From IMG/VR virus record IMGVR_UViG_3300033066_000802, positions 1 to 64,000 of that record: DNA of 64,000 nucleotides. One strand, 5' to 3'. The DNA is from a virus. Taxonomy: Duplodnaviria > Caudoviricetes. A program made the translations under genes and the position numbers. Positions 1 to 14,626 of this stretch are shown here, in pieces (position 1 is the stretch's first letter; each line of letters begins with the position of its first letter). The notes beneath the pieces are model-generated. The model made no database searches. It was not told the DNA's origin and was given only the letters and a program-made list of their open reading frames with translations.

Positions 1-1
1 T

Positions 2-598
2 GGTTCTTCTGGTTCATCAGGCGCTAACGGTACGTCAGGTTCATCAGGTGCAAATGGTGCTAACGGTGCTAACGGCTCAAGTGGTTCTTCTGGAGCTAAC
101 GGTGCTAATGGATCGAGCGGGTCATCAGGCGCAACTGGAGCAAATGGTTCAAGCGGAACTTCTGGAGCTAACGGTGCTAATGGTTCCAGTGGTACCAGTG
201 GTTCTGGGTCACCTGGTTCATCGGGTACAAGTGGTGCATCAGGCTCATCAGGTACCGCAGGTCAATCATTATCCAGAACACCATTATTAAACACAACAAC
301 ATCGTCATCATCTATTACGATTAATGCCGATACTACGGATATTTATACCGTTACCGCCTTAGCTACAGGTGTAACATTTAACGCACCAACTGGTACTATA
401 GCTGATGGTCAAACATTAGTTATTAGAATAAAAGATAATGGTACCGCCAGAGGCATTACATGGAATGCAATATTTAGAGCATCATCAGATCTTGCGTTAC
501 CAACGACAACAGTATTGGGTAAAACTATGTATCTTGGTTTTATTTATAACGTTGCGGATACAAAATGGGATTTTGTATCATTATTAAACAATATTTAA
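2..598 (+). CDS. Partial (5'-truncated) Gly-X-Ser/Asn triplet-repeat (collagen-like) fibre protein with C-terminal globular domain
   Basis: Not in ORF track; frame starting at nt 2 reads GSSGSSGANGTSGSS... then ...TLVIRIKDNGTARGITWNAIF...DTKWDFVSLLNNI-TAA(596-598). Confidence 0.8.
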   Translation, partial: GSSGSSGANGTSGSSGANGANGANGSSGSSGANGANGSSGSSGATGANGSSGTSGANGANGSSGTSGSGSPGSSGTSGASGSSGTAGQSLSRTPLLNTTTSSSSITINADTTDIYTVTALATGVTFNAPTGTIADGQTLVIRIKDNGTARGITWNAIFRASSDLALPTTTVLGKTMYLGFIYNVADTKWDFVSLLNNI

Positions 599-600
599 TT

Positions 601-1446
601 ATGAGGTTTTTTCCATTACCACTTAGATCACCAACACCTGTTGGATATTTGACTGAAACTAATACATTTTTAGCGGCTGATGCTGCATTGTCAGCTTTGT
701 CGACCACACATAAAGACGCAATTGATAGATGGTTTAGAGATTTAAAAGGTGAGAGCAACGGATCATATTCAACCTATAATGTCTTAAGTAAAATTGTTAC
801 TCTTTATCCATTTATTGGTGGTACATCAACCAGTATGGCTGTTAACGCTAAAAGTCCAGGAACATATAATTTAACACATACTGGTTCACCAACAATGAAC
901 GCAAATAGTATATCATATAATGGAACATCACAATATTCCAGAACCAATTTTACCCCAAATCAAAACTATACTGTAATTAGCGGATCAGATTTTACAGGAT
1001 TCTCAGTTCATAGAACTGATACTAATGTCGATACCAATGCAACATGTGGTGCACTTGGTTGGGGTAATACTTACTGTTATTTTCAGGGTGGTGCAAGCGG
1101 GCCTGGATATGTTGTATTAATTCTTTCGGGTAAAACAGCAATATCAGAATCAAAATCATATCCAACAAATTCTTGGTATATGGCATCGTGGGGTAGTTCA
1201 ACTTCTATGAATGCTTATGTAAATGGTACAAACGTTAAGGCAACAACCCAAACATACGACAACATACCATTACACCAATCATATATTGGGGCTTTTAACA
1301 TTAATAATTCATCTGTGGGTTATGGTGGAGCTAATACTTACGATTTCTATATGTCAGTAAAAGGTACATGGACAGATGCTGAAGCCGCTTCCATTTATAA
1401 CGCTACTAAAGCTCTTAAATCGGCTCTCGGTGTTACCTGGAACTAA
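601..1446 (+). CDS. Virion/fibre-associated protein, probable beta-sandwich (LamG/ConA-like) domain
   Basis: ATG at 601 directly after upstream stop; T/S/N/G/Y-rich; YVNG and IGA motifs typical of LamG-like folds. Confidence 0.5.
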   Translation: MRFFPLPLRSPTPVGYLTETNTFLAADAALSALSTTHKDAIDRWFRDLKGESNGSYSTYNVLSKIVTLYPFIGGTSTSMAVNAKSPGTYNLTHTGSPTMNANSISYNGTSQYSRTNFTPNQNYTVISGSDFTGFSVHRTDTNVDTNATCGALGWGNTYCYFQGGASGPGYVVLILSGKTAISESKSYPTNSWYMASWGSSTSMNAYVNGTNVKATTQTYDNIPLHQSYIGAFNINNSSVGYGGANTYDFYMSVKGTWTDAEAASIYNATKALKSALGVTWN

Positions 1447-2520
1447 TTACTTATTATAACGATTATAAGCATTATTAGTTATTAGATTATATTTAACTTT
1501 ACCAATAAAGTCAGATAAACTATAACAATCAGTATAACTCATAGCTGATCTAAGATAATGTTCGAAATTATCAACCCATCCAGATAAAGTATATTCAACT
1601 TTCTGATATTTACTTATACCCTCCGATGTTTTTAGTGTGGTATTACCCATCGCTCTTTGAGCATCTTTGGTTGACATTCCTCTGAATTTTTTATATAGGT
1701 GACCATGATCCATCATAGTTAATAATTCATCTTTAACAAGACTTTTCGGTGGGGTAACATATGAATAGACACTATAGTATGATTTAATATATTCATCAAC
1801 TGAAACAATATTCCCGTTATAATCAATAGCCATCTCACCAGCACTCTCAAACGATTTATTAAATATAGACCCAAGCATAACATAGTCGGCACCAAGAGCC
1901 AACGCTTTGATTACATCAGCATACTTTTTAAATCCACCATCAGCTACTATCTTTGCTGGATTAATCAGTTCACATGACACATCATAACACTCTTTTATAA
2001 GTGAACCCATTGGGTATCCAATACCCGTTTGTTGTGTTGTTAAACAACCCCCACCATTTCCGATACCAACTCTAACATAATCAGCACCAGCATTCGATAA
2101 TGCAACATATGTTCTTGGATGTGCTACATTACCAGCCATGATAATAATATTATTACCATGTTTATCTTTTAGATATTTTATTTTATCATACAACTTGGTC
2201 ATATGACCATTTGCTATATCTATAAGGAAATAGAATGGTGAGCGATTCATATCCCAATATTCGTCACTGATGTCTAAGCCACCAGAAGTGAATAATCGAT
2301 CATTAGTACTACCATACAGTTTTGCTGTCCTCGGTAATACAACACCTATTTTATTATCGTGAAAATCACGTATATTATCTACACTTACAACAGTATCCAT
2401 TGGTGCTGTAAATATCGGTAAAAATCCATTCTTATAATATACATCAATAACTGAACGAGTACTAATACTGGACTGTATAGCTGGTTCAATCAGTATATCG
2501 TCAAAATCAAACTTCATCAT
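1447..2520 (-). CDS. GMP reductase / IMP dehydrogenase family
   Basis: APMDTV, IDIANGH, GNVA, RVGIGNGGGCLT (catalytic Cys), ADGG, KALALGAD, FRGMS, SEG, LRSAMSY motifs; no CBS domains. Confidence 0.9.
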   Translation of the reverse strand: MMKFDFDDILIEPAIQSSISTRSVIDVYYKNGFLPIFTAPMDTVVSVDNIRDFHDNKIGVVLPRTAKLYGSTNDRLFTSGGLDISDEYWDMNRSPFYFLIDIANGHMTKLYDKIKYLKDKHGNNIIIMAGNVAHPRTYVALSNAGADYVRVGIGNGGGCLTTQQTGIGYPMGSLIKECYDVSCELINPAKIVADGGFKKYADVIKALALGADYVMLGSIFNKSFESAGEMAIDYNGNIVSVDEYIKSYYSVYSYVTPPKSLVKDELLTMMDHGHLYKKFRGMSTKDAQRAMGNTTLKTSEGISKYQKVEYTLSGWVDNFEHYLRSAMSYTDCYSLSDFIGKVKYNLITNNAYNRYNK

Positions 2521-2897
2521 ATTAAACCTAATTTCGTAAATGTTTCTATATTGAATTCAGCAAAAGCGCCTTCAAATAATAATTTTTTATCTATATAACC
2601 GATAAGATGTGGTTCATTCGTATTCATTTCACCAAACACATCACCAGTAAATATTGCACATGGTTTCTTAACACCATCTTTGTCAATACAATCTCTGGTC
2701 ATAATATGTTTGGCATTTTTAAGGTTTAAACCTGTTTCCTCAAATAATTCACGAATGATTACCTCAAGCGGGGTTTCACCAGGATCAATTTTACCACCTG
2801 GTAAACCCCACTTAGTATGGTCGGTTTTACGGGTTACACCCAGAACCAAACCATTGGTATCGAATGTAAGTAAACAAACAGAAAAAATCGTTTCCAT
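2517..2897 (-). CDS. NUDIX hydrolase
   Basis: Nudix box GGKIDPGETPLEVIIRELFEETGL. Confidence 0.92.
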   Translation of the reverse strand: METIFSVCLLTFDTNGLVLGVTRKTDHTKWGLPGGKIDPGETPLEVIIRELFEETGLNLKNAKHIMTRDCIDKDGVKKPCAIFTGDVFGEMNTNEPHLIGYIDKKLLFEGAFAEFNIETFTKLGLI

Positions 2898-2899
2898 AA

Positions 2900-3361
2900 T
2901 TAGATTAATATACGGTCAAGAATCTTTTTGAAAGTAGCCATGTCATACTGACCATTGTACTTCTGCTTAAACGCACCTGTTGTTTTACCTGGTAAAACAT
3001 TACTTGGTACACCACCTAATGTCGGTATTATGGCACGTATTCCAGCCTCAATTTCAGCTTCTGTCATCTGCGCTGGTAAGTATGATTGAAACACCAACAT
3101 TTCAGCTGTTTCAGCCGCTACAAGGTCAGCACGACCACCTTTTTCAAATTGAGCTATAGAGTCCTGACGCTGTTTAATAGCCTTTGTTATAACCTTTAAA
3201 ACATCATCATCGGTTAAAACGACCTTACCCTTATCGGTAAGTTCAGCTTTTGTTATTTCGTTCTTAAGACTATTTAACGCAGCCTTGGTAACTTTGGTGG
3301 CTTCACCACCCTTCCATGCGATAATATAATCCGCATTTATTTTATTCTGTAAAGTAGACAT
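2900..3361 (-). CDS. YqeY / GatB-domain protein
   Basis: KQRQDSIAQFEKGGRADLVAAETAEM...YLPAQMTEAEI signature. Confidence 0.88.
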   Translation of the reverse strand: MSTLQNKINADYIIAWKGGEATKVTKAALNSLKNEITKAELTDKGKVVLTDDDVLKVITKAIKQRQDSIAQFEKGGRADLVAAETAEMLVFQSYLPAQMTEAEIEAGIRAIIPTLGGVPSNVLPGKTTGAFKQKYNGQYDMATFKKILDRILI

Positions 3362-3366
3362 AGTTT

Positions 3367-3693
3367 TTATTTTTTCTTTTTAAATTCAAATGTTGCTGGA
3401 TAAGTTTCATTATACCCAGGCTTATCATAGATAACAACCCAACCCTCAGCACGATAGATATCCTCAACATCCAACCATTTGTTTTTGAATATCTCAGAAC
3501 GACTATAATTAGATTTTTTTTGGATTTCATCTATTATTTCATCCTGGGTTATCGTTGATGAATATCCGTTCCATTTACGTGGAATCATAACATTAAACGA
3601 CTCAATAACCACATCGGGTATTGTGTTGAGTTTAAGCTCAACAATATTATCTGGGCTAATTGGTTTTGCGTTCATATTTTTTTCTTTTACCAT
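3367..3693 (-). CDS. Hypothetical phage protein
   Basis: 108 aa ORF in tight gene run; WLDVEDIYRAEGW..YDKP.YNE motif. Confidence 0.7.
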   Translation of the reverse strand: MVKEKNMNAKPISPDNIVELKLNTIPDVVIESFNVMIPRKWNGYSSTITQDEIIDEIQKKSNYSRSEIFKNKWLDVEDIYRAEGWVVIYDKPGYNETYPATFEFKKKK

Positions 3694-3920
3694 TCAACTT
3701 GCCAATAATCACCATCTCTTTGGTCTGATACAAATAAACACTTATACCCCTGTTCTTTAAGCCTTTTTATTATAGCTTTTGTACCATTTTTATCCTCAAT
3801 TGATGTTGATGATTTACCCTTGAGTGATCTACTTTTAATTAATTCGTATATATGATTAAGTCTTACCTCATCTAAGATGCCACCGTCTTCAACGATTTTT
3901 CTTGCCTCAGTTGCGTTCAT
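3687..3920 (-). CDS. Hypothetical protein
   Basis: 77 aa ORF overlapping neighbours. Confidence 0.65.
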   Translation of the reverse strand: MNATEARKIVEDGGILDEVRLNHIYELIKSRSLKGKSSTSIEDKNGTKAIIKRLKEQGYKCLFVSDQRDGDYWQVEW

Positions 3921-4395
3921 TTTGTATTTCTTTTTTAACTGCTGTTAATATTTCACCTAACCAGTTCGTACCACGCCAGTTGGTTGGGTCTTCTATACCT
4001 GGTGCGTCTTCCGATAACCCAATACCCCAAATAATATCTTTAGGTGATGCTTCAACTAATAAACGATCTCCAGTACCTAACAATTCAGCTTTAAGTTTTG
4101 GGTTTTGTGTAAATTTAGCATAATTGGCATCGAATACAAATTGTTTACAATTAGCTTCCCATATCGCTTTATCAAAGTTTCTTACTTTACGACCCCAATC
4201 TTGTTGATCCCTTGGATGTTCTTCATCCATAATTAAATCAGCTGTTTCGTGATCACCAAATAACATGGCTTTCTTATACATCATGTACTGTTCAGCACAG
4301 TTGAATTTCATACCATCTATTACAAATGGGTAATGGCGTTTCCATTGGGAAAATGAACCATTCCAGAAGAATACATATTTATCTGTAACTTTCAT
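3907..4395 (-). CDS. NADAR (YbiA-like) ADP-ribosyl/N-glycosidase
   Basis: FSQW, AEQYMMYKKA.LFGD, KFTQNP.L...LL.TG...LVEASP.D.IWGIG, G.NWLG motifs. Confidence 0.92.
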   Translation of the reverse strand: MKVTDKYVFFWNGSFSQWKRHYPFVIDGMKFNCAEQYMMYKKAMLFGDHETADLIMDEEHPRDQQDWGRKVRNFDKAIWEANCKQFVFDANYAKFTQNPKLKAELLGTGDRLLVEASPKDIIWGIGLSEDAPGIEDPTNWRGTNWLGEILTAVKKEIQNERN

Positions 4396-4398
4396 ATA

Positions 4399-4725
4399 TT
4401 AATTTTTATAAATTGCGATTTGACTTTGACCTGAAGAATCTTTCCAGACCTTACCACAGATGTTTGGTTCTGGTTTTTCTTTTTTGGTTTTCACTTTTGA
4501 TTTTGGCTTATCATCCAACTCACACCATTCAGGTATTTCACATTCCTTTTTCACATTATATGGTCTACAAGCAACTGTAACATTTCGATTCGACTTTTTA
4601 CAAAATACCTTTACATCATCATGACAGAACCAATCATCTGGGTCAGGATCAACCTGAACCACGTGAAAAGGACAGTCTGTACAATTTTTTATTTCAAGTA
4701 CCTTCGTCCCCATATTCTTTTTCAT
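4399..4725 (-). CDS. Hypothetical Cys-rich protein
   Basis: CTDCPF...IPEWCEL; follows promoter at 4743-4774. Confidence 0.65.
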   Translation of the reverse strand: MKKNMGTKVLEIKNCTDCPFHVVQVDPDPDDWFCHDDVKVFCKKSNRNVTVACRPYNVKKECEIPEWCELDDKPKSKVKTKKEKPEPNICGKVWKDSSGQSQIAIYKN

Positions 4726-4742
4726 AAAATCAAATTAGACTA

Positions 4743-4774
4743 CAAATTTAAGGAGAAATTTTGATATAAACAAA
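4743..4774 (-). promoter_or_regulatory. Bacteroidota-type housekeeping promoter (-33 TTTG / -7 TAnnTTTG)
   Basis: Minus strand TTTG-N20-TAAATTTG. Confidence 0.75.
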
Positions 4775-4857
4775 TTTATTTCAAAAAATAATCTAAAAAA
4801 GAAAAACCAGAAATTGTACAATAAAGCTACTCACCTTATTATATAAAATCTGGTTTA

Positions 4858-4931
4858 TTGTGTTACAGTGGGTTTCGATCCCTTTCTAAGATGTCCACAA
4901 CATCTCGTGCTACCATTACACTACAGTAACC
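4858..4931 (-). tRNA. tRNA-His(GUG)
   Basis: Cloverleaf, AGATG-TT GTG GA-CATCT, G-1. Confidence 0.8.
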
Positions 4932-4944
4932 ATGTTAATTTTGT

Positions 4945-5018
4945 TGGGGTCAAGCACGGTATTGATCCGAGTTCTCTTGATTCACAGTCAAGCACATCAC
5001 CTTAATGCTTCAAGACCC
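4945..5018 (-). tRNA. tRNA-His(GUG)
   Basis: CTTGA-CT GTG AA-TCAAG; encoded CCA. Confidence 0.8.
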
Positions 5019-5027
5019 ATGTTATTC

Positions 5028-5102
5028 TGTAGCCCCTGGCAGAATCGAACTGCCGCTTCCACTTTGTAAGAGTGGCACACTTAACCACTATGTTAAGGGG
5101 CT
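5028..5102 (-). tRNA. tRNA-Val(UAC)
   Basis: CCACT-CT TAC AA-AGTGG; TTCGATT T-loop. Confidence 0.85.
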
Positions 5103-5105
5103 ATA

Positions 5106-5642
5106 TCACCAACCTTCAATTTGTGCGTGTCTAATTCTATGGCAATTGGCGCATAGTATCGCACATTTATCAAGTTCATTTGTTATTTTATCCCAAGATT
5201 GATATTTGATTTTATCAAAGTTTGGGTCTTTTTGTTTAGGTTCAAGATGATGAAATTCAAAAACAGAATAATGTGATTTTTCAAGTTTCAACTCACAATC
5301 TTCACACTGGTTGCCCTTATAACTAATCATTTTAAGTTTAACCTCTTTTACTCTATTAGTATGATATGCATTACTACATTTCTTACAATAACCACCAACA
5401 TCATTTCTATTTATCCTTTTGTAAAAATCAATTAATGGCTTAACCTTTTCACATTTTGGACAAAATTTATCAACTCTATCTTTTTTATTATATTGATTAG
5501 TTTTTGTTTTTAATTCAAAAGTATTTAACCAATATTTTACACTACCTTGTGAACATTTAAGTTCATCCGCAATTTTTCGTTGGGAATAACCCAGCTCTAT
5601 TAAATTCACCAATACATCTTTTTCCATGATAATAAATATCAC
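5106..5642 (-). CDS. HNH homing endonuclease (HTH + Zn-finger + HNH)
   Basis: CxxC pairs, FHHLEP..KD, LCANCHR; probable start MEKD at ~5627. Confidence 0.88.
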   Translation of the reverse strand: MIFIIMEKDVLVNLIELGYSQRKIADELKCSQGSVKYWLNTFELKTKTNQYNKKDRVDKFCPKCEKVKPLIDFYKRINRNDVGGYCKKCSNAYHTNRVKEVKLKMISYKGNQCEDCELKLEKSHYSVFEFHHLEPKQKDPNFDKIKYQSWDKITNELDKCAILCANCHRIRHAQIEGW

Positions 5643-5660
5643 TCACTTTAGAAAAAGATA

Positions 5661-5687
5661 ACTCTGAACCAACTGAGCTATACGGCT
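5661..5687 (-). pseudogene. Orphan tRNA 5' fragment (acceptor strand + D-arm), probably Val
   Basis: AGCCGTA-TA-GCTC-AGTTGGTTCA-GAGT ends abruptly at the HNH cassette. Confidence 0.75.
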
Positions 5688-5781
5688 AAATTTCTACCAG
5701 TTACGATTACCACAATTACGTAACGCCTCGCTCGCTAACGGAGCCGTTCTTTTTACGGGGTGGATTAAACTATGATATCCC

Positions 5782-5862
5782 TGTGCGCCTGGTTGGGTTC
5801 GAACCAACGACCCCCTGGTTAAAAGCCAGGTGCTTTAATCTACCAATCTGAGCTACAAGCGC
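5782..5862 (-). tRNA. tRNA-Lys(UUU), enlarged D-loop
   Basis: CCTGG-CT TTT AA-CCAGG. Confidence 0.88.
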
Positions 5863-5962
5863 ATTATTTAAATGTCTACTATAATATGCTTTTTGGGTAC
5901 CAGCGACCATTTTGCATAATTTAATATTCATTTCAACATAAAACAAAACGTCATATGTTGCT

Positions 5963-6037
5963 TGTGATCCCACAGGGATTCGAACCCTGAACCCGCTGGT
6001 TAAAAGCCAGCTACTCTACCAATTGAGCTATAAGATC
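5963..6037 (-). tRNA. tRNA-Lys(UUU)
   Basis: GCTGG-CT TTT AA-CCAGC. Confidence 0.9.
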
Positions 6038-6110
6038 GTGTGAGAGTATAGTTTGTTAAGCTATATGTTCACGCTGTTAGGCAGACATCCTACAATTTAG
6101 ATGAACTCTC

Positions 6111-6186
6111 TGGTGGTTCCACAGGGACTCGAACCCTGAACCCGCTGATTAAGAGTCAGCTGCGCTGCCAGTTGCGCCATGAAACC
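6111..6186 (-). tRNA. tRNA-Lys(CUU)
   Basis: GCTGA-CT CTT AA-TCAGC; encoded CCA. Confidence 0.92.
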
Positions 6187-6190
6187 AAAT

Positions 6191-6219
6191 AAAAAACCCC
6201 CGATTTTAGGTCAGGGGTT
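6191..6219 (-). terminator. Intrinsic terminator (attenuator 1) immediately before tRNA-Lys(CUU)
   Basis: AACCCCTGA-CCTAAAA-TCGGGGGTT-TTTT. Confidence 0.8.
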
Positions 6220-6245
6220 GTAAAGATCTTAGTTATAAGATATCC

Positions 6246-6326
6246 TTAGAAGTCATCAAAATACTCCCCCGTTAACACAAAGTGTTTCACATGTTTACTA
6301 TGTTTGACTATGACTATCTTTTTCAT
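6246..6326 (-). CDS. Putative attenuator leader peptide 1, MKKIVIVKHSKHVKHFVLTGEYFDDF
   Basis: 26 aa ORF between promoter and terminator; 12 of codons 2-17 are Lys/Val/His, the downstream tRNA isotypes. Confidence 0.75.
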   Translation of the reverse strand: MKKIVIVKHSKHVKHFVLTGEYFDDF

Positions 6327-6359
6327 CTTATTATATTTTTATTCGTTTTTTAAAATTAC

Positions 6360-6413
6360 AGGTTGTGCTTGTTTTTCGCTAAAAGAAAGTTTTTAATTTG
6401 CTGAATACAACCT
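6360..6413 (-). ncRNA. Stem + CAGCAA module RNA (stand-alone)
   Basis: AGGTTGT-ATTCAGCAA...TTTC TTTTAGC GAAA...AAGC-ACAACCT. Confidence 0.6.
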
Positions 6414-6428
6414 CATTAATAATTAGTA

Positions 6429-6460
6429 CAAATGTACGCAATGTTTTCGAAATAAACAAA
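6429..6460 (-). promoter_or_regulatory. Bacteroidota-type promoter of the Lys/Val/His tRNA block
   Basis: TTTG-N20-TACATTTG. Confidence 0.78.
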
Positions 6461-6535
6461 TTTATTTCAAAATTTATTTTTCTGGCTCAAAAAATCACTA
6501 ATTTGAGCTTCAAATCATACTGGGATTAAAAGAAT

Positions 6536-6609
6536 TGTGACTCCACAAGGAATCGAACCTTGATATGTTCTTTAGAAGAGAACCGCTCTATCCATTGAGC
6601 TATGGAGCC
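6536..6609 (-). tRNA. tRNA-Arg(UCU)
   Basis: GTTCT-CT TCT AA-AGAAC. Confidence 0.88.
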
Positions 6610-6698
6610 AAGTTTTGAAATTCACCAGCCACATCAGAAAAGCTGTCCATTCTGCGTAGTTTAAAGGATACCGTTACAGCCCTAACCTACTGGTTTTA

Positions 6699-6971
6699 TT
6701 ATTTACAAGCTGTTATTTTATTCCAAAGTTTTTTATCAGCTATACTTTTTTTACGACCATACCATCTAATACTACGCATAAAACCCATATTTTCACCTAT
6801 ATAATGAGCGAGGAAACTCTCAATAGATTGAGATTGATCCACACGACCATCCGATTTTCTACGCATAAATAATTTACCATCACAAAACTTATAATCCCAA
6901 TATTTTCGTATTTTTTTTAAAACCTTAATATTCATAACCATTAATTTTTTTACTCGTACTAATAAAATCAT
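6699..6971 (-). CDS. Hypothetical basic protein
   Basis: ORF track; likely start MNIK ~6935. Confidence 0.55.
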   Translation of the reverse strand: MILLVRVKKLMVMNIKVLKKIRKYWDYKFCDGKLFMRRKSDGRVDQSQSIESFLAHYIGENMGFMRSIRWYGRKKSIADKKLWNKITACK

Positions 6972-7236
6972 TTACAAACTTATCCACCACTGATAAATAT
7001 TCCCCATTAATTGAGTACTTCACAAATTTACCATCTTTAATAACTTTTATGATATTTGCCTTACGTAATATTGCAAGATGTTGTGACATTATTGACACTT
7101 CAAGATGCATTATTTTACTCAAATCAGTAATGTTCATATCTTTATTTTTAGATATGTTTTTTAATATCTCTTGCCTGGTTCTATGATTTAGAGAACGTAG
7201 GATCATTGACACCTCTTTTACTGACACATAATTCAT
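6925..7236 (-). CDS. ArsR/SmtB-family HTH transcription regulator
   Basis: LRSLNHRTRQEIL...SQHLAILRKANII...GKFVKYS; start moved to MNYV because 7254 lies inside a tRNA. Confidence 0.85.
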   Translation of the reverse strand: MNYVSVKEVSMILRSLNHRTRQEILKNISKNKDMNITDLSKIMHLEVSIMSQHLAILRKANIIKVIKDGKFVKYSINGEYLSVVDKFVNDFISTSKKINGYEY

Positions 7237-7238
7237 AA

Positions 7239-7313
7239 TGGTACCGATAAACAATTTTGAAATGTCGTCCTCACCCTTATGAGGGGTGCGCTCTGCCTCT
7301 GAGCTATATCGGT
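7239..7313 (-). tRNA. tRNA(CAU), probably Ile2 (lysidine type)
   Basis: CACCC-CT CAT AA-GGGTG (Ile-type anticodon arm); encoded CCA. Confidence 0.78.
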
Positions 7314-7556
7314 ATTAACTGGCATAGCTTTCATCACCAGTGTAGTAGTGCTTGTATAACTACTTTGATCGACTCGTCCCCTTAGCCATCGATCAATGCG
7401 CCATTTCAACCGTTAATTACTCGGCTTACTACAAGAGTTATAGGTAACACCTATCAGTTAAAAAATTGGTACGTTCTCAGATTCCTCTATCTAATCAGTA
7501 CCTGTCCCTAATGTTTGAGGTGAAGGAATTCCTCAAACCTGTCAGAGGGGACTTTC

Positions 7557-7631
7557 GAGCAGGTAATGAGATTCGAACTCACAACTTCCGACTTGGAAGG
7601 ACGGCACTCTAACCAATTGAGCTACACCTGC
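7557..7631 (-). tRNA. tRNA-Gly(UCC)
   Basis: CT TCC AA loop, U73; nt 8-10 (TAG) are the stop codon of the upstream HNH. Confidence 0.88.
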
Positions 7632-8050
7632 ATTGTTTTTTGTTGATAATGTAAATCCCTATGACAGTTAGAACATAATACAACACATTTATTTATTTCA
7701 TCTAATATTCGTTGTTTGTTAGCTGTTTTTACTAAACTTGAAACATCAATATCTTTTTCATTCGGATCAAGATGATGAAAATCTAAAACCCAATGTCTAT
7801 CCTCACCACATTTAGTACAAGACGAATTTTGTTTTATTTCTAAAACCCAATTAATAATATTTTGATTATAAATTTTAGCCTTATCAATATACTTTTGCTT
7901 ATTATTAATATAATGCTCACGTCTATAATTTTTTTGACATACCCGACACAAAGATTGATGATATTTTACTCTTCTATCTGTTCGACTCGCAAAATATTCA
8001 TCAGTCAATGGTATATCTTTTTTACAACCATTACAAAATTTTGTTACCAT
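7622..8050 (-). CDS. HNH homing endonuclease
   Basis: CxxC pairs, LDFHHLDPNEKD, LCSNCHR; start MVTK (8107 start lies in a tRNA). Confidence 0.88.
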   Translation of the reverse strand: MVTKFCNGCKKDIPLTDEYFASRTDRRVKYHQSLCRVCQKNYRREHYINNKQKYIDKAKIYNQNIINWVLEIKQNSSCTKCGEDRHWVLDFHHLDPNEKDIDVSSLVKTANKQRILDEINKCVVLCSNCHRDLHYQQKTMQV

Positions 8051-8060
8051 ATCAAAAAAT

Positions 8061-8133
8061 GAGCGGTAGAGTGGAGTCGAACCACCATTTTTGCCTTGGT
8101 AAGGCAATATAATAGCCTTTATACGACTACCGC
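8061..8133 (-). tRNA. tRNA-Gly(ACC), rare A34 anticodon
   Basis: TTGCC-TT ACC AA-GGCAA; acceptor GCGGTAG/CTACCGC, U73. Confidence 0.82.
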
Positions 8134-8472
8134 AATTGAGGCGATGCTTCGGTACGCCTCGATTCCCTATTCACCCATTTATAGTGACACCAGAAGCTTC
8201 TGTTTGTTCATTCCCTCGCTACTAATCGGTTGCCATACGACCAAGAATTCCAGATCCTGTTGGATCAACTCCTTTCGGAGAACGCCATGAGCAGCGCTAA
8301 TAATTGATTTTCATTTCGTTCAATTACTAAAACACGGTTGACTTTTAATGAGTTCCCCTCTCAATATTTTTAAAGTAGTCCCTGAGCAATAGACTCTGTA
8401 CCAGCGCTGATACCTATTGGGGACTCATGTTACGTTACATCTTATGATGTAAGAGGCTTTACACGCCACACT

Positions 8473-8546
8473 GAGCGGCAGACTGGATTCGAACCAGCGA
8501 CCTGGTACTTGGCAAGCACCTGCTCTACCAACTGAGCTACTACCGC
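8473..8546 (-). tRNA. tRNA-Gly(GCC)
   Basis: GCC anticodon, GCGGTAG/CTGCCGC acceptor, U73. Confidence 0.9.
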
Positions 8547-8823
8547 AAATAAAGTCAGAGGCTTGTGGGAATCCGATAACCTCGGCTGTACACACCTTTC
8601 GCTGATTGCTCAACTACACACGCTTGACTTTAAAGCTTACAAAAAACATCTTATCCCAATGTCATGAGGCTTGCGCCAGGGGAATCCGTTTACCATCCAA
8701 TCGTTTTTAATGAGGGATTGGAACCTCAGCCCAAAATAAAGTTACTAAGGAGAGTGTTCGCTCAAACAGGTAATGAACCTATATTCTCAACACTTAGAGG
8801 TGTTTTGCTACCCTTTTCACTTT

Positions 8824-8948
8824 GTCGCCCAGGATGGACTTGCACCACCGACCCACAGTTCCCATATTAAAATTTTAACTGCGGAACACATTCTCTAACA
8901 GAATGCTCTTTTTTTTTTACTGCTGCTCTGCTACTGAGCTACCAGGCG
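8824..8948 (-). ncRNA. tRNA-like RNA whose anticodon loop is replaced by a ~60 nt insert with hairpin + GTTCCGCA module
   Basis: Acceptor, D and T arms intact; GCAGT/ACTGT stem encloses A10-GAG-CATTCT gttag AGAATG-TGTTCCGCAG. Confidence 0.7.
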
Positions 8949-8962
8949 AATTTTCACTCATC

Positions 8963-9164
8963 GAGATACGATGAATTAGATTTTAACGGCTTTCTTTACT
9001 ATTCAAGAAGCATTCATTTTCATTAGTGTCTTACCACATACAAACCCGTCAAACTATTTGGAAGCTCTGTTACCTGCCCTTGACCCAAACCCCAGTATTT
9101 TAAAGTTACCACCTGGATATTAACTATAACTTTTTAAAGAAGTTACAAACTTGCTGAGTACCTC
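8963..9164 (-). ncRNA. ~200 nt RNA closed by stem + CAGCAA module
   Basis: GAGGTAC-TCAGCAA ... GTATCTC; no ORF. Confidence 0.5.
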
Positions 9165-9173
9165 TTACTCATT

Positions 9174-9194
9174 GCGGGGAGATCAGGATTCGAA
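9174..9194 (-). repeat. Displaced tRNA 3' end; 19 bp direct repeat of 9983-10001
   Basis: GGGGAGATCAGGATTCGAA at 9176-9194 and 9983-10001, flanking the nuclease gene. Confidence 0.85.
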
Positions 9195-9239
9195 AATCGA
9201 ATTTTGATCGAAATTAAACTATTTATTATTATTAATATT

Positions 9240-9926
9240 ATGATGCCACTTTACACTAAATACGAATTTAACTTAGCTAAACCAACAACTAAATTAACCT
9301 GTAAATGTTTATTTTGTAATAAAACTTTTTACTTAACAAAACATCGAATTCAAGCATGTTTAAATATTAATAACAAATCAAATACTGGTGATTTTTGTTC
9401 AATTAAATGCTCCAAATTATCAACAAGTAAAAAAGAAAATGTTAATTGTTTACAATGTAATAATATTTTTCTTAAATCAAAAGCTGAAATTAAAAAATCA
9501 CCTAACCATTTCTGTTCCAAGTCTTGCGCTGCCTCATATAATAACAAACACAAAACCACTGGTACCAGAAGATCCAAACTTGAACTCTACCTGGAAGAAC
9601 AATTAATATTGCTTTATCCAAACATTGAATTTCATTTTAACCGAAAAGACACTATTAATTCAGAACTCGATATCTATATACCATCCCTTAAACTTGCATT
9701 TGAGCTTAACGGTATCTTTCATTATGAACCAATATATGGTACAGATAAACTAAACCAAATACAGAACAATGACATATCCAAATCAAAAGCTTGCTTCGAT
9801 AATCAAATTGATCTTTGCACTATTGATGTGTCTGGTTTAAAATACTTCAAACCAAGCAACGCTCAAAAATACTTAGATATCATTGTAAATATCATAAATC
9901 AAAGAACTTCATTGTTAACCTCTTAG
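9240..9926 (+). CDS. Zn-finger + PD-(D/E)XK/Vsr(DUF559)-like putative homing endonuclease
   Basis: CxxC/FCS..C repeats, SKLE, ELDIYIPSLKLAFELNG.FHY; opposite strand to the tRNAs. Confidence 0.8.
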   Translation: MMPLYTKYEFNLAKPTTKLTCKCLFCNKTFYLTKHRIQACLNINNKSNTGDFCSIKCSKLSTSKKENVNCLQCNNIFLKSKAEIKKSPNHFCSKSCAASYNNKHKTTGTRRSKLELYLEEQLILLYPNIEFHFNRKDTINSELDIYIPSLKLAFELNGIFHYEPIYGTDKLNQIQNNDISKSKACFDNQIDLCTIDVSGLKYFKPSNAQKYLDIIVNIINQRTSLLTS

Positions 9927-9981
9927 CCAGCTTTACCTGTTTCTAACAACAACCACGTAGAGGTGGGTTAACTATGTTATC

Positions 9982-10104
9982 TGGGGAGATCAGGATTCGA
10001 ACCTGAACCTTTTTCTTAACAGGAAATTTTTGAGATAGTGATTTGCCGAACTTATCCACAACTGGATAACTCTTTTTTTAATGCTGCCGTTACACCATCT
10101 CCCC
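9982..10104 (-). tRNA. tRNA-Asn(GUU)-like with ~50 nt insert between D and anticodon arms
   Basis: GGGGAGA/TCTCCCC acceptor; insert A7-GAG-TTATCCA gttg TGGATAA-GTTCGGCAAAT; TTTC-CT GTT AA-GAAA. Confidence 0.72.
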
Positions 10105-10166
10105 GATTGTCTTACAATATTAAGAAATCATTTCGGTAAAACCAAGTGAATTTCAAAACTTTTTTG

Positions 10167-10284
10167 TTGTACACCAAGGAATTGAACCTTGCCCTTTCGA
10201 TTATGATTCGAAGTTTCTGTTGATTGCTGTATTAAACCCCTACGGGTTGTTTGAGATAACGTGCTACCGCTACACCAATGCGCA
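10167..10284 (-). tRNA. tRNA(CAU)-like with ~45 nt insert between D and anticodon arms
   Basis: Insert AACCC gtag GGGTT-TAATACAGCAATC; TTCGA-AT CAT AA-TCGAA; weak acceptor stem. Confidence 0.65.
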
Positions 10285-10378
10285 AGATAAAAAATATGAA
10301 GTAACTCTGTCAATCTAAAGTGTGCCGTTTACGCCAACGCTTGTTGGTTTCCATACTGACCCTTCTACTTCATATTTA

Positions 10379-10417
10379 GAGCCTCTGATAGGACTCGAAC
10401 CTACAACCATCTCCTTA
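10379..10417 (-). pseudogene. 3' half of a split tRNA (probably Thr)
   Basis: TAA-GGAGA-TGGTT-GTAGG TTCGAGT CCTAT-CAGAGGC; acceptor complementary to fragment at 10979-11010. Confidence 0.85.
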
Positions 10418-10427
10418 AAATTCTTTT

Positions 10428-10501
10428 GAGCCGCTAACAGGATTCGAACCTGCACACCCTGATTACAAGTCAGGAGTTCTACCAATTAAAACTATAGCGG
10501 C
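10428..10501 (-). tRNA. tRNA-Thr(UGU)
   Basis: CCTGA-CT TGT AA-TCAGG; nt 8-10 TAG is the HNH stop. Confidence 0.9.
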
Positions 10502-10920
10502 TTATTTAAATTGACCGTCTTTCTCCATTTTCTACCCTTACCTCTACTTTTATAGTAAGGTGTTAATGAATGACAATTAGGGCATAATAATTCCAAATTA
10601 TTTAAGTCATTATTTTCAGGATTACCATCAATATGATTTAATTCAATAGGAATCTTATTAGTAAATTTATTAATTTCGCACCAACCACATTTCATACATT
10701 TATTTCCATGTGTTTTAATTAAAAATCGTTTACCAACCCTTTCAATCGTATCTTTTCTACCCAAATCATCAAATTCACCAGACATAAATTTATCATATCG
10801 TAATTTATTTTGATATTCCGCTTGACACATATTATTACAATATGTATTTCTATTAGCGATTGTCTTTGAGCAATTCAAACACGTTTTTCCAATTTTTCTC
10901 TGTTTCTCATGGTCAACCAT
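10492..10920 (-). CDS. HNH homing endonuclease
   Basis: CMKCG, IELNHIDGNPENNDLNNLELLCPNCHS. Confidence 0.92.
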   Translation of the reverse strand: MVDHEKQRKIGKTCLNCSKTIANRNTYCNNMCQAEYQNKLRYDKFMSGEFDDLGRKDTIERVGKRFLIKTHGNKCMKCGWCEINKFTNKIPIELNHIDGNPENNDLNNLELLCPNCHSLTPYYKSRGKGRKWRKTVNLNKPL

Positions 10921-10978
10921 TTACTATTATAAATAGTGGTCAACCGATGAGAATTCAGATTCTAAGAACTTTTTTTCT

Positions 10979-11010
10979 GAGTTGCTCTACCAGTTAAGAG
11001 CTACAGAGGC
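10979..11010 (-). pseudogene. 5' half of the split tRNA (probably Thr)
   Basis: GCCTCTG-TA-GCTC-TTAACTGGTA-GAGC-A-ACTC. Confidence 0.85.
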
Positions 11011-11130
11011 ATTTCAACTTTTAGATTAACCCCAGAGTTGACAACTGTGCTGGCATACGATCCAGAGGCAAGGTTTCACCGTTCTTATGAGAGGTGTGCC
11101 ACATCTTCGCTCCCTTGCGCTTCGGGCTTT

Positions 11131-11217
11131 TGTAACGGCAGTGAGATTCGAACTCACGTTCTCTTTCGAGTTAGGGGTTATGAGCCCCCGCTGGTACCAT
11201 CTCCAGTCGACACCGCA
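11131..11217 (-). tRNA. Initiator-like tRNA(CAU) with long variable arm
   Basis: GGGGG-CT CAT AA-CCCCT; 1:72 mismatch; variable arm AACTCGAAAGAGAAC. Confidence 0.7.
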
Positions 11218-11304
11218 ATTTATCTTATAAATATACTCATCATTGATAAAGTTGTAAATACTTAGTAAAGTAATTCACTTTATTAATCAAAAATAAGTTT
11301 ATTA

Positions 11305-11381
11305 TGGCGGGAACAGAAAGACTCGAACTTTCAACCCTCTCGCTAACAACGAGCCGCTCTGACATTAGTAGCTATGTTCCC
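11305..11381 (-). tRNA. tRNA-Asn(GUU)
   Basis: TT GTT AG loop, G73, encoded CCA. Confidence 0.82.
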
Positions 11382-11468
11382 AATTTGTAAGGCTACCAAA
11401 TCCTTACGTGGAGGCTATTAGAAGGGTGTTTTCGACCTTGCCTCATTCTCCCCTTACGGTCACAGGTT

Positions 11469-11669
11469 TTAATATTTTAAACTACCACACAATATATCCA
11501 TTTCAACACCATTATCAAATCGTACCGCAACAAAGTCATCAAAACCACCCATACTACCGAATTTTGTATCTGGTACTGTTGTACCCATAACACCCTCAGT
11601 AAGTTGTTCATTATACTTAGTTAAATCCGTAATCAATTGTACTCTTTTTGGTGTACCTCCGTACTGCAT
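11469..11669 (-). CDS. Small hypothetical protein (SH3/KOW-like)
   Basis: 66 aa; RV.L...G..GTT...VAVRFDNG pattern. Confidence 0.55.
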   Translation of the reverse strand: MQYGGTPKRVQLITDLTKYNEQLTEGVMGTTVPDTKFGSMGGFDDFVAVRFDNGVEMDILCGSLKY

Positions 11670-11808
11670 AACAATAATTTAAAGATTAAAAAAATTGCTG
11701 TCTATTCCATGCCGCCAACCGTTTAATCTATTTGAAACGGTAAAAGTCAACTAAAGGTTACTTATCTTATTTTTACAGCATTAAGAACCAAGTTAAGAAT
11801 CAAGCTAT

Positions 11809-11881
11809 GTTGCGAGAGAAGGATTTGCACCCCCGACCTTCGGGTTATGAGCCCGACAAGCTACTACTGCTCTATCTCGCA
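11809..11881 (-). tRNA. tRNA-fMet(CAU)
   Basis: TCGGG-CT CAT AA-CCCGA (three G-C pairs); 5' end overlaps HNH C-terminus. Confidence 0.85.
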
Positions 11882-12439
11882 ATTTAATATTTTCAATATT
11901 CCATTATCGAACTCCCAATGATGATTTGGACATAACGCCATTAAATTATCGATATGGTTAATTTCTTCTATAGTACTATTATCACAAAAATCGGAAACCG
12001 CTTTAATGTGCGCCACTTCGTAGTGATTATGGTACCCACAATAACAACAAATTTTCAATTTATCAGACTCGTTGAAAACGTAGTTAGCATGTTTCCGTAT
12101 ACTCGTCCTGGCTGACTGCCAATTCTTATGTTTACTAAAAATCTCAGATTTGGTTAGTCCTGTTAAAAATTTAAACGGCATTTTAACTTTAACCGTTTTT
12201 GATTGCTCAATCTTTACTTTTTTAGAATTGTTGTATGATGCAGCACAACTACGATTACAAAACTTTCTAACTCTAACCTCTCTGGTTTTTTCGTGAGACC
12301 TTACCTCAATTATTTTTTCGCAATAATGGCATTTATTTGGATTCTGGTAATACCTTGCTAACGCTCGTTCACGTTGTTTTGCGTTACCAATGGCTGCGGC
12401 TTTTTGATGTTTATTCAGTTCCATACATATAAATAGCAT
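11864..12439 (-). CDS. HNH homing endonuclease
   Basis: FCNRSCAA Zn finger, EVAHIKAV...NHIDNLMALCPNHHWEFD; probable start MELN at 12424. Confidence 0.9.
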   Translation of the reverse strand: MLFICMELNKHQKAAAIGNAKQRERALARYYQNPNKCHYCEKIIEVRSHEKTREVRVRKFCNRSCAASYNNSKKVKIEQSKTVKVKMPFKFLTGLTKSEIFSKHKNWQSARTSIRKHANYVFNESDKLKICCYCGYHNHYEVAHIKAVSDFCDNSTIEEINHIDNLMALCPNHHWEFDNGILKILNCEIEQ

Positions 12440-12460
12440 AGAACTTTCGAAAATACCATC

Positions 12461-12484
12461 CGCTACACACTGCTCTACCCCGCT
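12461..12484 (-). pseudogene. Orphan 5' fragment of tRNA-fMet
   Basis: AGCGGGG-TA-GAGCAGTGTGTAGCG; can pair with the acceptor 3' strand at ~11811-11817 with a 1:72 mismatch. Confidence 0.78.
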
Positions 12485-12489
12485 ATATT

Positions 12490-12693
12490 TTAATTTATAT
12501 AAGCAACATTATCTTTTACTTCAACAGATGATGCATACCCCCTCATAACCAAATGAGGTTGTGTTTTACTCCATTTAGTTTCACACGGAACACCACATTT
12601 AATGTCCTGGGCAATTAAACATTGATTTCTGAAATGCACTGTCATTGCTTTATTAATTTTGTTGAAATGATAAAAAAACCTATATTTTTTCAT
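12490..12693 (-). CDS. Small hypothetical phage protein
   Basis: MKKYRFFYHFNK...CETKWSKTQPHLVMRG; 12762 start lies in a tRNA-like RNA. Confidence 0.65.
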   Translation of the reverse strand: MKKYRFFYHFNKINKAMTVHFRNQCLIAQDIKCGVPCETKWSKTQPHLVMRGYASSVEVKDNVAYIN

Positions 12694-12707
12694 TTGTTTA
12701 TTTTTAA

Positions 12708-12827
12708 TAGATGTGTACTGGATTCGAACCAATGTCTGAGGTGGCTTTACGCTATCGACCAAGATAAAAGGGATTTGAACCCTATCGCTACCTGACTCCC
12801 CAATTTTACCGTTAAACTAACACAACA
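12708..12827 (-). ncRNA. tRNA-like RNA with anticodon loop replaced by an insert containing a second T-arm
   Basis: GTTGTGT/ACACATC acceptor, D arm, ATTGG TTCGAAT CCAGT T arm; insert has AGGG TTCAAAT CCCT. Confidence 0.6.
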
Positions 12828-12829
12828 TG

Positions 12830-13012
12830 TTATGTCTTTGATGCTTCAATTGATATATCATTAAATACTGCTGATGTTGAGTTGTAACGTTCATGTGTTT
12901 CAATCGAAACGTTTACTTTAATTTCACCAGTTCCTTTGAAACCTATTGATTCCAAATGTTTTTTAATGATAGCATCGAGATCTTTCTTATCGAATTTAAT
13001 TGTTGTGGTCAT
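12830..13012 (-). CDS. Small hypothetical protein
   Basis: 60 aa ORF after promoter at 13029-13060. Confidence 0.6.
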   Translation of the reverse strand: MTTTIKFDKKDLDAIIKKHLESIGFKGTGEIKVNVSIETHERYNSTSAVFNDISIEASKT

Positions 13013-13028
13013 AAAATATTCCTTTCAG

Positions 13029-13060
13029 CAAAGTTACGAAAAGAATTTGAATTCACCAAA
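13029..13060 (-). promoter_or_regulatory. Bacteroidota-type promoter internal to the tRNA array
   Basis: TTTG-N20-TAACTTTG. Confidence 0.65.
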
Positions 13061-13081
13061 CAAAACCCAATATTTCTTTAA

Positions 13082-13158
13082 AGCGGATGTGACGGGACTC
13101 GAACCCGCACCACGCACCGTGACCAGGTGGCATTGTTATCCAATTCAACCACACATCC
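13082..13158 (-). tRNA. tRNA-Asp(GUC), atypical G33
   Basis: CACC-TG GTC AC-GGTG; G73. Confidence 0.8.
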
Positions 13159-13162
13159 ATTA

Positions 13163-13318
13163 GTGGCGACAATGGGAGTCGAACTCATAATCTCTGGGTT
13201 ATGCCCCCAGCGTGGTCATCCTCTCCGTTTAGTTACTTCTACCTTGTGTAATATTCCACTCAGCTTATTCATCTAAACATCCTTTTATCGAGGATTTTCC
13301 AAATTTCACTCTATCGCA
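13163..13318 (-). tRNA. Initiator-like tRNA(CAU) with ~80 nt insert in the D-loop
   Basis: TGCGATA/TGTCGCC acceptor (1:72 mismatch), GTG/CAC D stem, CTGGG-GG CAT AA-CCCAG. Confidence 0.65.
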
Positions 13319-13332
13319 TGATAAGTGTTTAT

Positions 13333-13770
13333 TTACTTTGTTAATTCTCGCATTTTATCGATACAACTATTAATCGAAAATCTTAAAAGAAGATCTGTTA
13401 ATATTTCAACAGTACCAATACCACCATAAGATTCAACCAGATTATTTCGCCATTTCCCACTTTTTTCATCTACACGATATAAATACCCATGTCCTTTATG
13501 AAAGGTAAATACAAAATCGGCTGATGCTGGTCTATCGTCATTATATGAACTCCTGATATCCAAGTGATAATTCAATTTTTCAAACAACGCCCAAATTTTT
13601 TCATTAGCAATATCACCTTCATTAGAATCCCTATTACCAGACATATCAAACCTTAAGTGTTCTGGTTGTTCATCTGGTAGATATTCTTTAGACAAATCTT
13701 GTCCGAGTGTCTTTCTAACAAAAGCCTCTACGATAGCTTTCATTTCTTCTGTAATACTTGTTAATAACAT
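13333..13770 (-). CDS. Hypothetical protein
   Basis: 145 aa ORF between tRNAs. Confidence 0.7.
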   Translation of the reverse strand: MLLTSITEEMKAIVEAFVRKTLGQDLSKEYLPDEQPEHLRFDMSGNRDSNEGDIANEKIWALFEKLNYHLDIRSSYNDDRPASADFVFTFHKGHGYLYRVDEKSGKWRNNLVESYGGIGTVEILTDLLLRFSINSCIDKMRELTK

Positions 13771-13786
13771 ATATTTTTTTTAATTA

Positions 13787-13861
13787 AGCGGGAAACAAGG
13801 GGGTCGAACCCTCAATCTCTACCGTGACAGGGTAGCATGTTACCATCAACACCTCGTTCCC
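13787..13861 (-). tRNA. tRNA-Asp(GUC)
   Basis: CTACC-CT GTC AC-GGTAG. Confidence 0.88.
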
Positions 13862-13869
13862 AATATTTT

Positions 13870-13945
13870 TGTAGCCACGACCAGATTCGAACTGGTATTT
13901 TAGGTTTAGGAAACCCACGTTCTGTCCAGTTGAACTACACAGCCA
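13870..13945 (-). tRNA. tRNA-Arg(CCU)
   Basis: TGGGT-TT CCT AA-ACCTA. Confidence 0.85.
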
Positions 13946-14150
13946 TTTTTTTGCCGCCATACCTATTTTTTAATATTTTAGTTGGTAACCCTGATTGGTG
14001 ATCATCAATGAATATAACCAATGATTCATGTTTTACTATTTGATAAGCTTCACCAGGGAAATCATTCAAACTAATTTCTTCAAACGGTTTATTCCTATCG
14101 TAACCAGGAAGATCTTCTCTAAAATAAACTAAACAAGTTGTTTTTAACAT
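13935..14150 (-). CDS. Small hypothetical protein
   Basis: 71 aa; stop codon is nt 8-10 of tRNA-Arg(CCU). Confidence 0.6.
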   Translation of the reverse strand: MLKTTCLVYFREDLPGYDRNKPFEEISLNDFPGEAYQIVKHESLVIFIDDHQSGLPTKILKNRYGGKKMAV

Positions 14151-14163
14151 AATTTAAAATTTT

Positions 14164-14239
14164 TGCGGAATAGAAGGGACTCGAACCCTCGACCTTCGCA
14201 GTGACAGTGCGATATTGTAACCAGCTCTACTACTACTCC
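14164..14239 (-). tRNA. tRNA-Asp(GUC)
   Basis: TCGCA-CT GTC AC-TGCGA. Confidence 0.88.
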
Positions 14240-14333
14240 GTTTTAAAAAATCTTTCAGACTCACTTTTTTGCTCCTTCTATGCGGAAACACATATGGATG
14301 AAGTGGTTGTCGTATAACATATTTTTTAGGGTC

Positions 14334-14536: not shown

Positions 14537-14548
14537 ATAAAGATTTTT

Positions 14549-14622: not shown

Positions 14623-14626
14623 ATTT

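Follow-up and report, generated by a model that had tools for sequence, protein, structure and literature searches.

A short open reading frame (ORF) rich in Lys, Val, and His codons, standing directly ahead of a group of phage transfer RNA (tRNA) genes that serve these same codons, raises the question of whether the phage regulates the tRNA genes by translating the ORF. Phage tRNA genes are usually viewed as constitutive codon usage supplements or as spares against tRNA-cutting defenses, and to our knowledge, their regulation is almost unexplored. The locus belongs to a giant phage and lies in the IMG/VR record IMGVR_UViG_3300033066_000802 (Caudoviricetes), a 154.6-kb viral record that is ∼52% complete with a G+C content of 32%, and the window that was analyzed (positions 1 to 64,000) is its first 64 kb. 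In our reading of the sequence, the unit is probably a leader-peptide attenuator that responds to slow decoding of Lys, Val, and His codons by raising transcription of the matching tRNAs.

The leader ORF and its match to the downstream tRNA genes

The unit is located on the minus strand, which carries most genes of the record, and consists, in order, of a promoter, a 26-codon ORF, a terminator, seven tRNAs (one of which is a 5′ fragment), and an end terminator. The promoter, ORF, and first terminator had been proposed by a first-pass annotation of the window, and all three were found on this strand as described. The features of the leader region are as follows (nt, nucleotides):

6460-6429, minus strand: Bacteroidota-type promoter found by a motif scan, with the −33 element TTTG at 6460-6457, the −7 element TAcaTTTG at 6436-6429, and a spacing of 20 nt
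6360-6413, minus strand: hairpin of ∼54 nt in the 5′ untranslated leader, obtained by folding and present in this phage only
6326-6246 including the stop, minus strand: leader ORF of 26 codons with an ATG start, obtained by ORF calling and also 26 codons long in three relatives
6276-6323, minus strand: candidate sensor codons 2 to 17 (5 Lys, 4 Val, 3 His, 2 Ile, 1 Ser, and 1 Phe), read from the codons
6289-6319, minus strand: segment 1 (ORF nt 8 to 38, codons 3 to 13), which pairs with segment 2 in minimum-energy folds of the ribosome-free RNA
6261-6272, minus strand: segment 2 (codons 19 to 22, with a G-run), complementary to segment 3
6211-6223, minus strand: segment 3 (terminator 5′ arm at 6219-6211 plus 4 nt of flank), from a hairpin search and duplex energies
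6187-6203, minus strand: segment 4 (terminator 3′ arm at 6203-6195 plus T-run at 6196-6187), from a hairpin search
6186-6111, minus strand: tRNA-Lys(CUU), found by ARAGORN and Rfam, beginning 1 nt past the T-run

The ORF is distinguished by its codon content. The count of 12 Lys, Val, or His codons among the 16 codons from 2 to 17, including both AAA and AAG, was reproduced on recounting and comprises 5 Lys codons (4 AAA and 1 AAG), 4 Val codons (2 GTC and 2 GTG), and 3 His codons (2 CAT and 1 CAC). Among 681 ATG-initiated ORFs of 20 to 45 codons in the six frames of the whole record, this is the only one with at least 10 such codons in positions 2 to 17, the runner-up having 9. Over the entire ORF, Lys, Val, and His make up 12 of the 25 residues after the start, compared with 14.9% of the phage proteome (binomial tail, 9 × 10⁻⁵). 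Downstream, the first-pass annotation had correctly listed Lys(CUU), two Lys(UUU), Val(UAC), and two His tRNAs, and the label Val that it gave to the fragment, which has no anticodon, could not be upheld. Both AAA and AAG are present in the leader, and both Lys anticodons are encoded by the operon. The leader scores a z of 4.7 against its own tRNA set and ≤1.0 against each of seven other operon sets, and the claim that its codon content tracks its own tRNAs is borne out in nine units from five phage lineages, as described below.

The ATG of the ORF lies ∼97 nt past position 6429, where the −7 element ends, with the transcription start itself predicted from the promoter. In agreement with the earlier claim that no internal promoter precedes 4774, the motif scan finds no promoter motif between 6429 and 4774, and the next promoter after the unit is located at 4774-4743. 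The promoter at 6460-6429 is 88% identical to a twin at 16391-16327, and 4786-4733 holds a weaker copy. The hairpin at 6360-6413 is missing from the three homologous leaders (G001, L022, and L025), which are shorter. An Rfam match to Dictyostelium class I RNA at 6412-6359 scored under the family threshold and was taken as a chance match.

Across the 154.6-kb record, the Bacteroidota promoter motif (TTTG, 17 to 23 nt, TAnnTTTG) has 19 copies on the gene (minus) strand and 4 on the other, and the best cultured matches of an A1-like DNA-transfer protein (16983-18578) are Maribacter and Flavobacterium phages. Because of this strand bias and these matches, the host is most likely a member of the Bacteroidota and plausibly of the Flavobacteriia.

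Terminator and competing RNA pairings

The terminator hairpin has a stem of 9 pairs, 5 of which are G-C, a 7-nt loop (6210-6204), and an energy of −12.8 kcal/mol. The T-run, which ends 1 nt ahead of tRNA-Lys(CUU), is interrupted and consists of six T, one A, and three T. In an alignment, the paired columns of the terminator stem are shared by the window and G001, a relative with a complete record of 320.9 kb, and the two stems are distinguished by four double (compensatory) changes.

Codons 19 to 22 (6272-6261) pair with 6223-6211, which comprises the C-run of the 5′ arm and its flank, at −11.7 kcal/mol (p = 0.026 versus shuffles), an energy close to that of the terminator. This is the pairing of GGGG-A-GTA with TAC-AA-CCCC that the first-pass annotation had put forward; this candidate antiterminator is upheld, and it recurs with other sequences in every unit. 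Terminators of the G001 clade are based on CCAGG/CCTGG, and their leaders carry CCTGG at the codons of segment 2. Because codons and terminator share this motif, segment 2 and the terminator arm have changed together.

The consequences of ribosome position were modeled by masked folding, in which the RNA up to the leading edge of the ribosome was masked and the nucleotides of the 5′ arm held by upstream RNA before the 3′ arm exists were counted. In the ribosome-free fold, segment 2 is held by segment 1 and 0 of the 9 nt of the 5′ arm are held, so that the terminator can form. With the A site at codons 5 to 13, segment 2 already holds 6 to 7 of the 9 arm nt in the window and 11 of 12 in G001, and with the A site at codon 17 or the stop, no arm nucleotide is held. 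The masked folds of both phages reproduce, in these models, the logic of the trp attenuator.

Recurrence in related and unrelated phages

Comparison of the region with GenBank phages gave matches through single tRNAs only, and neither the 108-amino-acid downstream protein nor the exact shared-promoter pattern detected close relatives among viral contigs. G001 was reached via the A1-like protein (75% amino acid identity), and a DNA search of this genome matched the leader itself at 79% identity. A degenerate leader pattern had 14 matches in metagenomes, of which three were true homologues, one being the G001 record again and the others L022 and L025; the remaining matches were unrelated ORFs or in-frame parts of genes and were discarded, and in prokaryote genomes, the pattern found two chance matches only.

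All four homologues (the window, G001, L022, and L025) have a 26-codon ORF with its stop 20 to 26 nt ahead of the terminator (26 nt in the window), a T-run, and tRNA-Lys(CUU) within ∼10 nt. The first-pass annotation had named loss or frameshifting of the ORF in relatives that keep the terminator as evidence contrary to an attenuator; no such case was seen, and the three relatives retain the ORF, terminator, and tRNA-Lys(CUU) in order. In codons 1 to 13, L022 and L025 differ by 4 synonymous and 0 nonsynonymous changes and G001 and L025 differ by 4 and 1, respectively. Between the window and each relative, the numbers are even (3 to 4 synonymous and 4 nonsynonymous), with third-position differences being the commonest. 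Codons 14 to 27 show mostly nonsynonymous changes, and the Lys codons alternate between AAA and AAG among the homologues. This substitution pattern fits sensor codons rather than a functional peptide, and the synonymous excess in codons 1 to 13 lends indirect support to translation of the leader. In addition, the operons of the relatives hold tRNA-Ile(UAU) and tRNA-Ile(GAU), and their leaders have 4 Ile codons versus 2 in the window. Leader content moves together with operon content, because the extra Ile tRNAs accompany extra Ile codons.

The search for further units looked for terminators immediately before the leading tRNA of a cluster, and the ORF in front of each was then read. The following units, in addition to that of the window, have leaders matching their tRNAs:

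G001, one unit: codons 8 to 19 encode Leu, Arg, and Gln only, ahead of tRNAs Arg(ACG), Leu(AAG), Leu(UAG), Gln(CUG), Gln(UUG), and Leu(UAA)
G001, second unit: leader rich in Ser, Trp, Tyr, Glu, and Pro, ahead of tRNAs Tyr, Pro, Pro, Ser, Trp, Ser, and Glu
L018 (364.7 kb): His/Pro/Gln leader, ahead of three Pro, one His, and two Gln tRNAs
L020/L019: Asn/His/Ser/Trp/Ile leader, ahead of Asn, two Trp, two Ser, and His tRNAs and, later, two Ile tRNAs
L017: two further units

The L018, L020/L019, and L017 phages are unrelated to the window and were found solely through a tRNA-His that they share with it; this tRNA, tried as a synteny anchor, gave no syntenic relatives but led to these unrelated phages with codon-matched leaders of their own. 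For eight independent units, the true assignment of leaders to operons has the highest enrichment score of 40,320 permutations, with operon sets that were fixed after the data had been seen (every tRNA on the same strand until a long gap or a further unit is reached), a choice on which the result for the window locus does not depend. In every unit, the distal part of the ORF (codons 17 to 29, the last third) is complementary to its own terminator 5′ arm, with energies of −12.6 to −18.8 kcal/mol in ten units besides the window, and the true assignment of leaders to terminators is the best of 362,880 permutations. This recurrence, in which both the codons and the pairing sequences differ from unit to unit, provides the strongest evidence for the proposed attenuator.

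The codon match also bears on what such a device would sense. It might respond to amino acid starvation or to general translation speed through charged tRNA, rather than to tRNA abundance, and couple tRNA synthesis to host physiology or the stage of infection. Textbook attenuators such as those of trp and his respond to the level of charged tRNA whatever its cause, and low tRNA and low charging are indistinguishable from sequence. However, extra tRNA gives no relief of amino acid starvation, and the codon-by-codon match to anticodons (AAA and AAG in the window, and 11 of 12 codons matched by an anticodon among the six tRNAs of the G001 Leu/Arg/Gln unit) fits a supply sensor better, and we regard starvation or general translation speed as quite unlikely to be what is sensed. 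Most likely, the attenuator would sense the supply of the tRNAs encoded by its own operon.

A second leader in the window, at 16217-16300 on the minus strand (the 16.2-kb leader), had been paired with its own tRNA operon by the first-pass annotation, which judged coincidence improbable given two matched pairs. The Lys/Val/His pair stands, and the 16.2-kb leader proved weakly specific for its tRNAs (binomial, 0.048), with homologues that are not placed directly before tRNAs; the argument from two matched pairs was set aside as independent support. The homologues of its small ORF are found in two relatives, at L006 12399-12473 (plus strand) and L005 2890-2967 (plus strand), each with its own promoter and terminator, after which come promoters and protein genes (one of 335 codons) and then Phe, Asn, Asp, Arg, Met, Thr, and Gly tRNAs. 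Cassettes seem to have been inserted between attenuator and tRNAs in these two relatives.

An arrangement of this kind, with a promoter, ORF, and terminator followed by other promoters and protein genes rather than directly by tRNAs, would be expected if the ORF were a separate gene for a micro-protein, having a promoter of its own and a leaky terminator. The tRNAs would then be transcribed by constitutive readthrough, and the likeness in composition would have no regulatory meaning. The N-terminal half of the Lys/Val/His leader is conserved at the amino acid level, and the transcript that carries the ORF in L025 has an 84-codon gene ahead of it; both are further points for a protein-coding role. 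On the other hand, units with unrelated peptides each mirror their own tRNA set, the C-terminal half is unconserved while its RNA stays complementary to the terminator arm of its own unit, and all four homologues have the terminator adjoining the first tRNA. An independent micro-protein gene is therefore very unlikely.

The downstream part of the Lys/Val/His operon comprises the following features:

6037-5964, minus strand: tRNA-Lys(UUU), found by ARAGORN and Rfam
5862-5784, minus strand: second tRNA-Lys(UUU), with an enlarged D arm, found by Rfam (58.5 bits) and lacking an ARAGORN call
∼5686-5655, minus strand: tRNA 5′ half (acceptor and D arm), of an isotype that is not assignable
5642/5627-5106, minus strand: HNH homing-endonuclease ORF, after the tRNA 5′ half
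5102-5029, minus strand: tRNA-Val(UAC), found by ARAGORN and Rfam
5017-4947, minus strand: unusual tRNA-His(GUG), found by Rfam only (38.3 bits) and missed by ARAGORN
4930-4860, minus strand: tRNA-His(GUG), found by ARAGORN and Rfam
4856-4804, minus strand: operon-end terminator, a long hairpin with a T-run (−20.6 kcal/mol; z = −5.85; fold equaled by 0 of 200 shuffles)

All 21 ARAGORN tRNA calls of the record fall in 4860-16149, and Rfam adds a few more. HNH ORFs lie within tRNA operons at 5106-5686 and 7622-8107 of the window (both on the minus strand), at L015 5390-5960 (minus strand), and at 4943-5581 of the oriented copy of L018, where one stands between the attenuator and the first tRNA. 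Next to these ORFs, there is often a truncated tRNA half together with an intact tRNA of the matching isotype. The 37-nt core of the unusual tRNA-His(GUG) at 4947-5017 is identical, bar a compensating anticodon-stem pair, in 5 viral contigs with quite different tRNA neighborhoods. Because a near-identical core occurs in such differing surroundings, the sequences suggest that this gene is mobile between large phages.

Other observations concern the tRNA arrays of the related and unrelated phages. In G001 and L022 (L015 8063-8136, minus strand; L022 oriented copy, 393-466), a tRNA with the anticodon CUA, which is an amber suppressor labeled “Pyl” by ARAGORN, adjoins a tRNA-Cys, and the leader/terminator unit is absent ahead of this pair. 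TAG recoding may occur in this phage group. A structured RNA with a conserved 5′ CAATTCGGGA and 3′ TCCGATGAATTG closing a variable interior is found at L015 12160-12275 (minus strand), L006 13905-14005 (plus strand), and L005 3443-3544 (plus strand). It lies directly after promoters and ahead of tRNA-Phe and the Leu/Arg/Gln leader (z = −1.4 to −2.3), and the window contains no copy at ≤1 mismatch. In L006, ARAGORN calls a tRNA with a four-base anticodon (tgta) at 15241-15325 (plus strand) within a tRNA array.

Proposed mechanism and comparison with known systems

From the parts of the unit and their conservation, together with the codon match and the competition between pairings, we infer that the ORF is translated, that transcription can terminate at the hairpin, that the response is an increase in tRNA synthesis, and that tRNA supply is the trigger. 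Host RNA polymerase would start at the promoter at 6460-6429, and a ribosome would translate the 26-codon ORF. If Lys, Val, or His codons were decoded slowly, the ribosome would sit on segment 1, and segment 2 would pair with segment 3 before the 3′ arm is made, so that no terminator would form and transcription would continue into the Lys, Lys, Lys, Val, His, and His tRNAs. With fast decoding, a ribosome at the stop would cover segment 2, the terminator would form, and the transcript would end 1 to 5 nt before the first tRNA. Without translation, segments 1 and 2 would pair, and the terminator would form as well. The net effect would be negative feedback, in which low decoding capacity leads to more of the matching tRNAs and a shortage in any one of the three amino acid classes suffices.

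Several points weigh against this proposal. The antiterminator of the window is the weakest of the set, having 6 + 3 pairs with a 2-nt bulge and a single-locus p value of 0.026, and the fold of the whole leader is not significantly more stable than those of shuffled sequences (z = −1.0). Once segment 4 is present, every masked state has the terminator as its minimum-energy fold at equilibrium. Since the completed terminator always wins at equilibrium, the modeled switch must operate kinetically, like those of classical attenuators. Two of the Val codons are GTC, a nonstandard partner of the anticodon UAC, and no tRNA in the operon of the window serves the two ATA Ile codons. No clear terminator is seen between the upstream tRNA-Arg and the promoter, and transcripts from upstream may enter the leader. 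The homologous leaders are four in number, with three of them mutually close, and coupling of transcription and translation in a Bacteroidota host is assumed.

The weak antiterminator and the advantage of the terminator at equilibrium would also be explained if leader translation controlled the tRNA genes without a hairpin switch, either through exposure of the RNA to Rho or nucleases or with the hairpin serving as an element for the processing or stability of the tRNA precursor. The interrupted T-run and the 1-nt distance between the hairpin and the first tRNA's RNase P site are in keeping with this explanation. However, a G+C-rich stem and a T-run have been kept, with compensatory changes, in an AT-rich genome, and the unit-specific complementarity of segments 2 and 3 is hard to explain without a structural switch. 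We therefore consider control without a hairpin switch unlikely and a leader-peptide attenuator the probable function of the unit.

More tentatively, large phages may split their tRNA genes into suboperons behind codon-matched sensors and so possess a modular homeostat of decoding capacity, and the unit could also act as a counter-defense alarm; we see this wider scheme as a possibility that is rather doubtful at present. Anticodon nucleases cut or deplete tRNA-Lys, and the alarm role is suggested because the unit watches Lys codons above all. In this variant, the loss of tRNA-Lys to a host nuclease would stall the leader ribosome, and the phage would at once transcribe replacement Lys, Val, and His tRNAs.

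A full-text literature search yielded no account of tRNA genes controlled by a leader peptide, and the application of the known attenuator mechanism to phage tRNA genes is apparently unpublished. If the proposed mechanism is true, it would provide direct feedback on decoding capacity through a leader that reads the codons served by the downstream tRNAs, and it would extend attenuation from amino acid metabolism to the translation apparatus, in a phylum in which attenuation has been little studied. It would also supply a sequence rule by which tRNA transcription units could be located in uncultured phages and offer compact, programmable sensors of codon-specific translation speed. Sharp and inexpensive predictions follow for leader swaps and codon recoding.

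Control of translation-apparatus genes by tRNA status is known from the pheST attenuator, which has the pheM leader, and from T-box riboswitches. Like these systems, the phage unit would tie the expression of decoding machinery to the state of the cognate tRNA via transcription termination. In contrast, pheM controls a synthetase through a single-amino-acid leader, and T-boxes act without an ORF by binding uncharged tRNA directly; an Rfam search of positions 1 to 20000 (E ≤ 1) matched neither a T-box nor any other cis-regulatory family here.

Multivalent attenuators include the ilvGMEDA leader, with Ile, Leu, and Val codons, and the thr leader, with Thr and Ile codons. These leaders and the phage unit are alike in that one leader contains codons for several amino acids, any one of which can stall the ribosome, as predicted for the phage. 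The codon mix of ilvGMEDA and thr reflects a shared biosynthetic pathway, whereas that of the phage would reflect the tRNA genes grouped downstream and shifts between relatives, as with the Ile codons added in G001.

Among the closest parallels are trpL, hisL, leuL, and pheL of Escherichia coli, which are leader-peptide attenuators of amino acid biosynthesis operons, and the phage unit possesses all of the sequence-level features of a leader-peptide transcription attenuator. Both have a short leader ORF rich in sensor codons, the alternative 1:2, 2:3, and 3:4 pairings, and an intrinsic terminator immediately ahead of the first gene under control, with a stalled ribosome favoring the antiterminator; for the phage, these pairings and this response are in silico predictions. 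In contrast to the E. coli leaders, the phage unit is phage encoded, has a Bacteroidota promoter, lacks a Shine-Dalgarno-like sequence, and shows no sequence similarity to known leaders. It would, moreover, regulate tRNAs rather than enzymes, such that the molecule sensed and the product made belong to the same class, which would constitute direct feedback.

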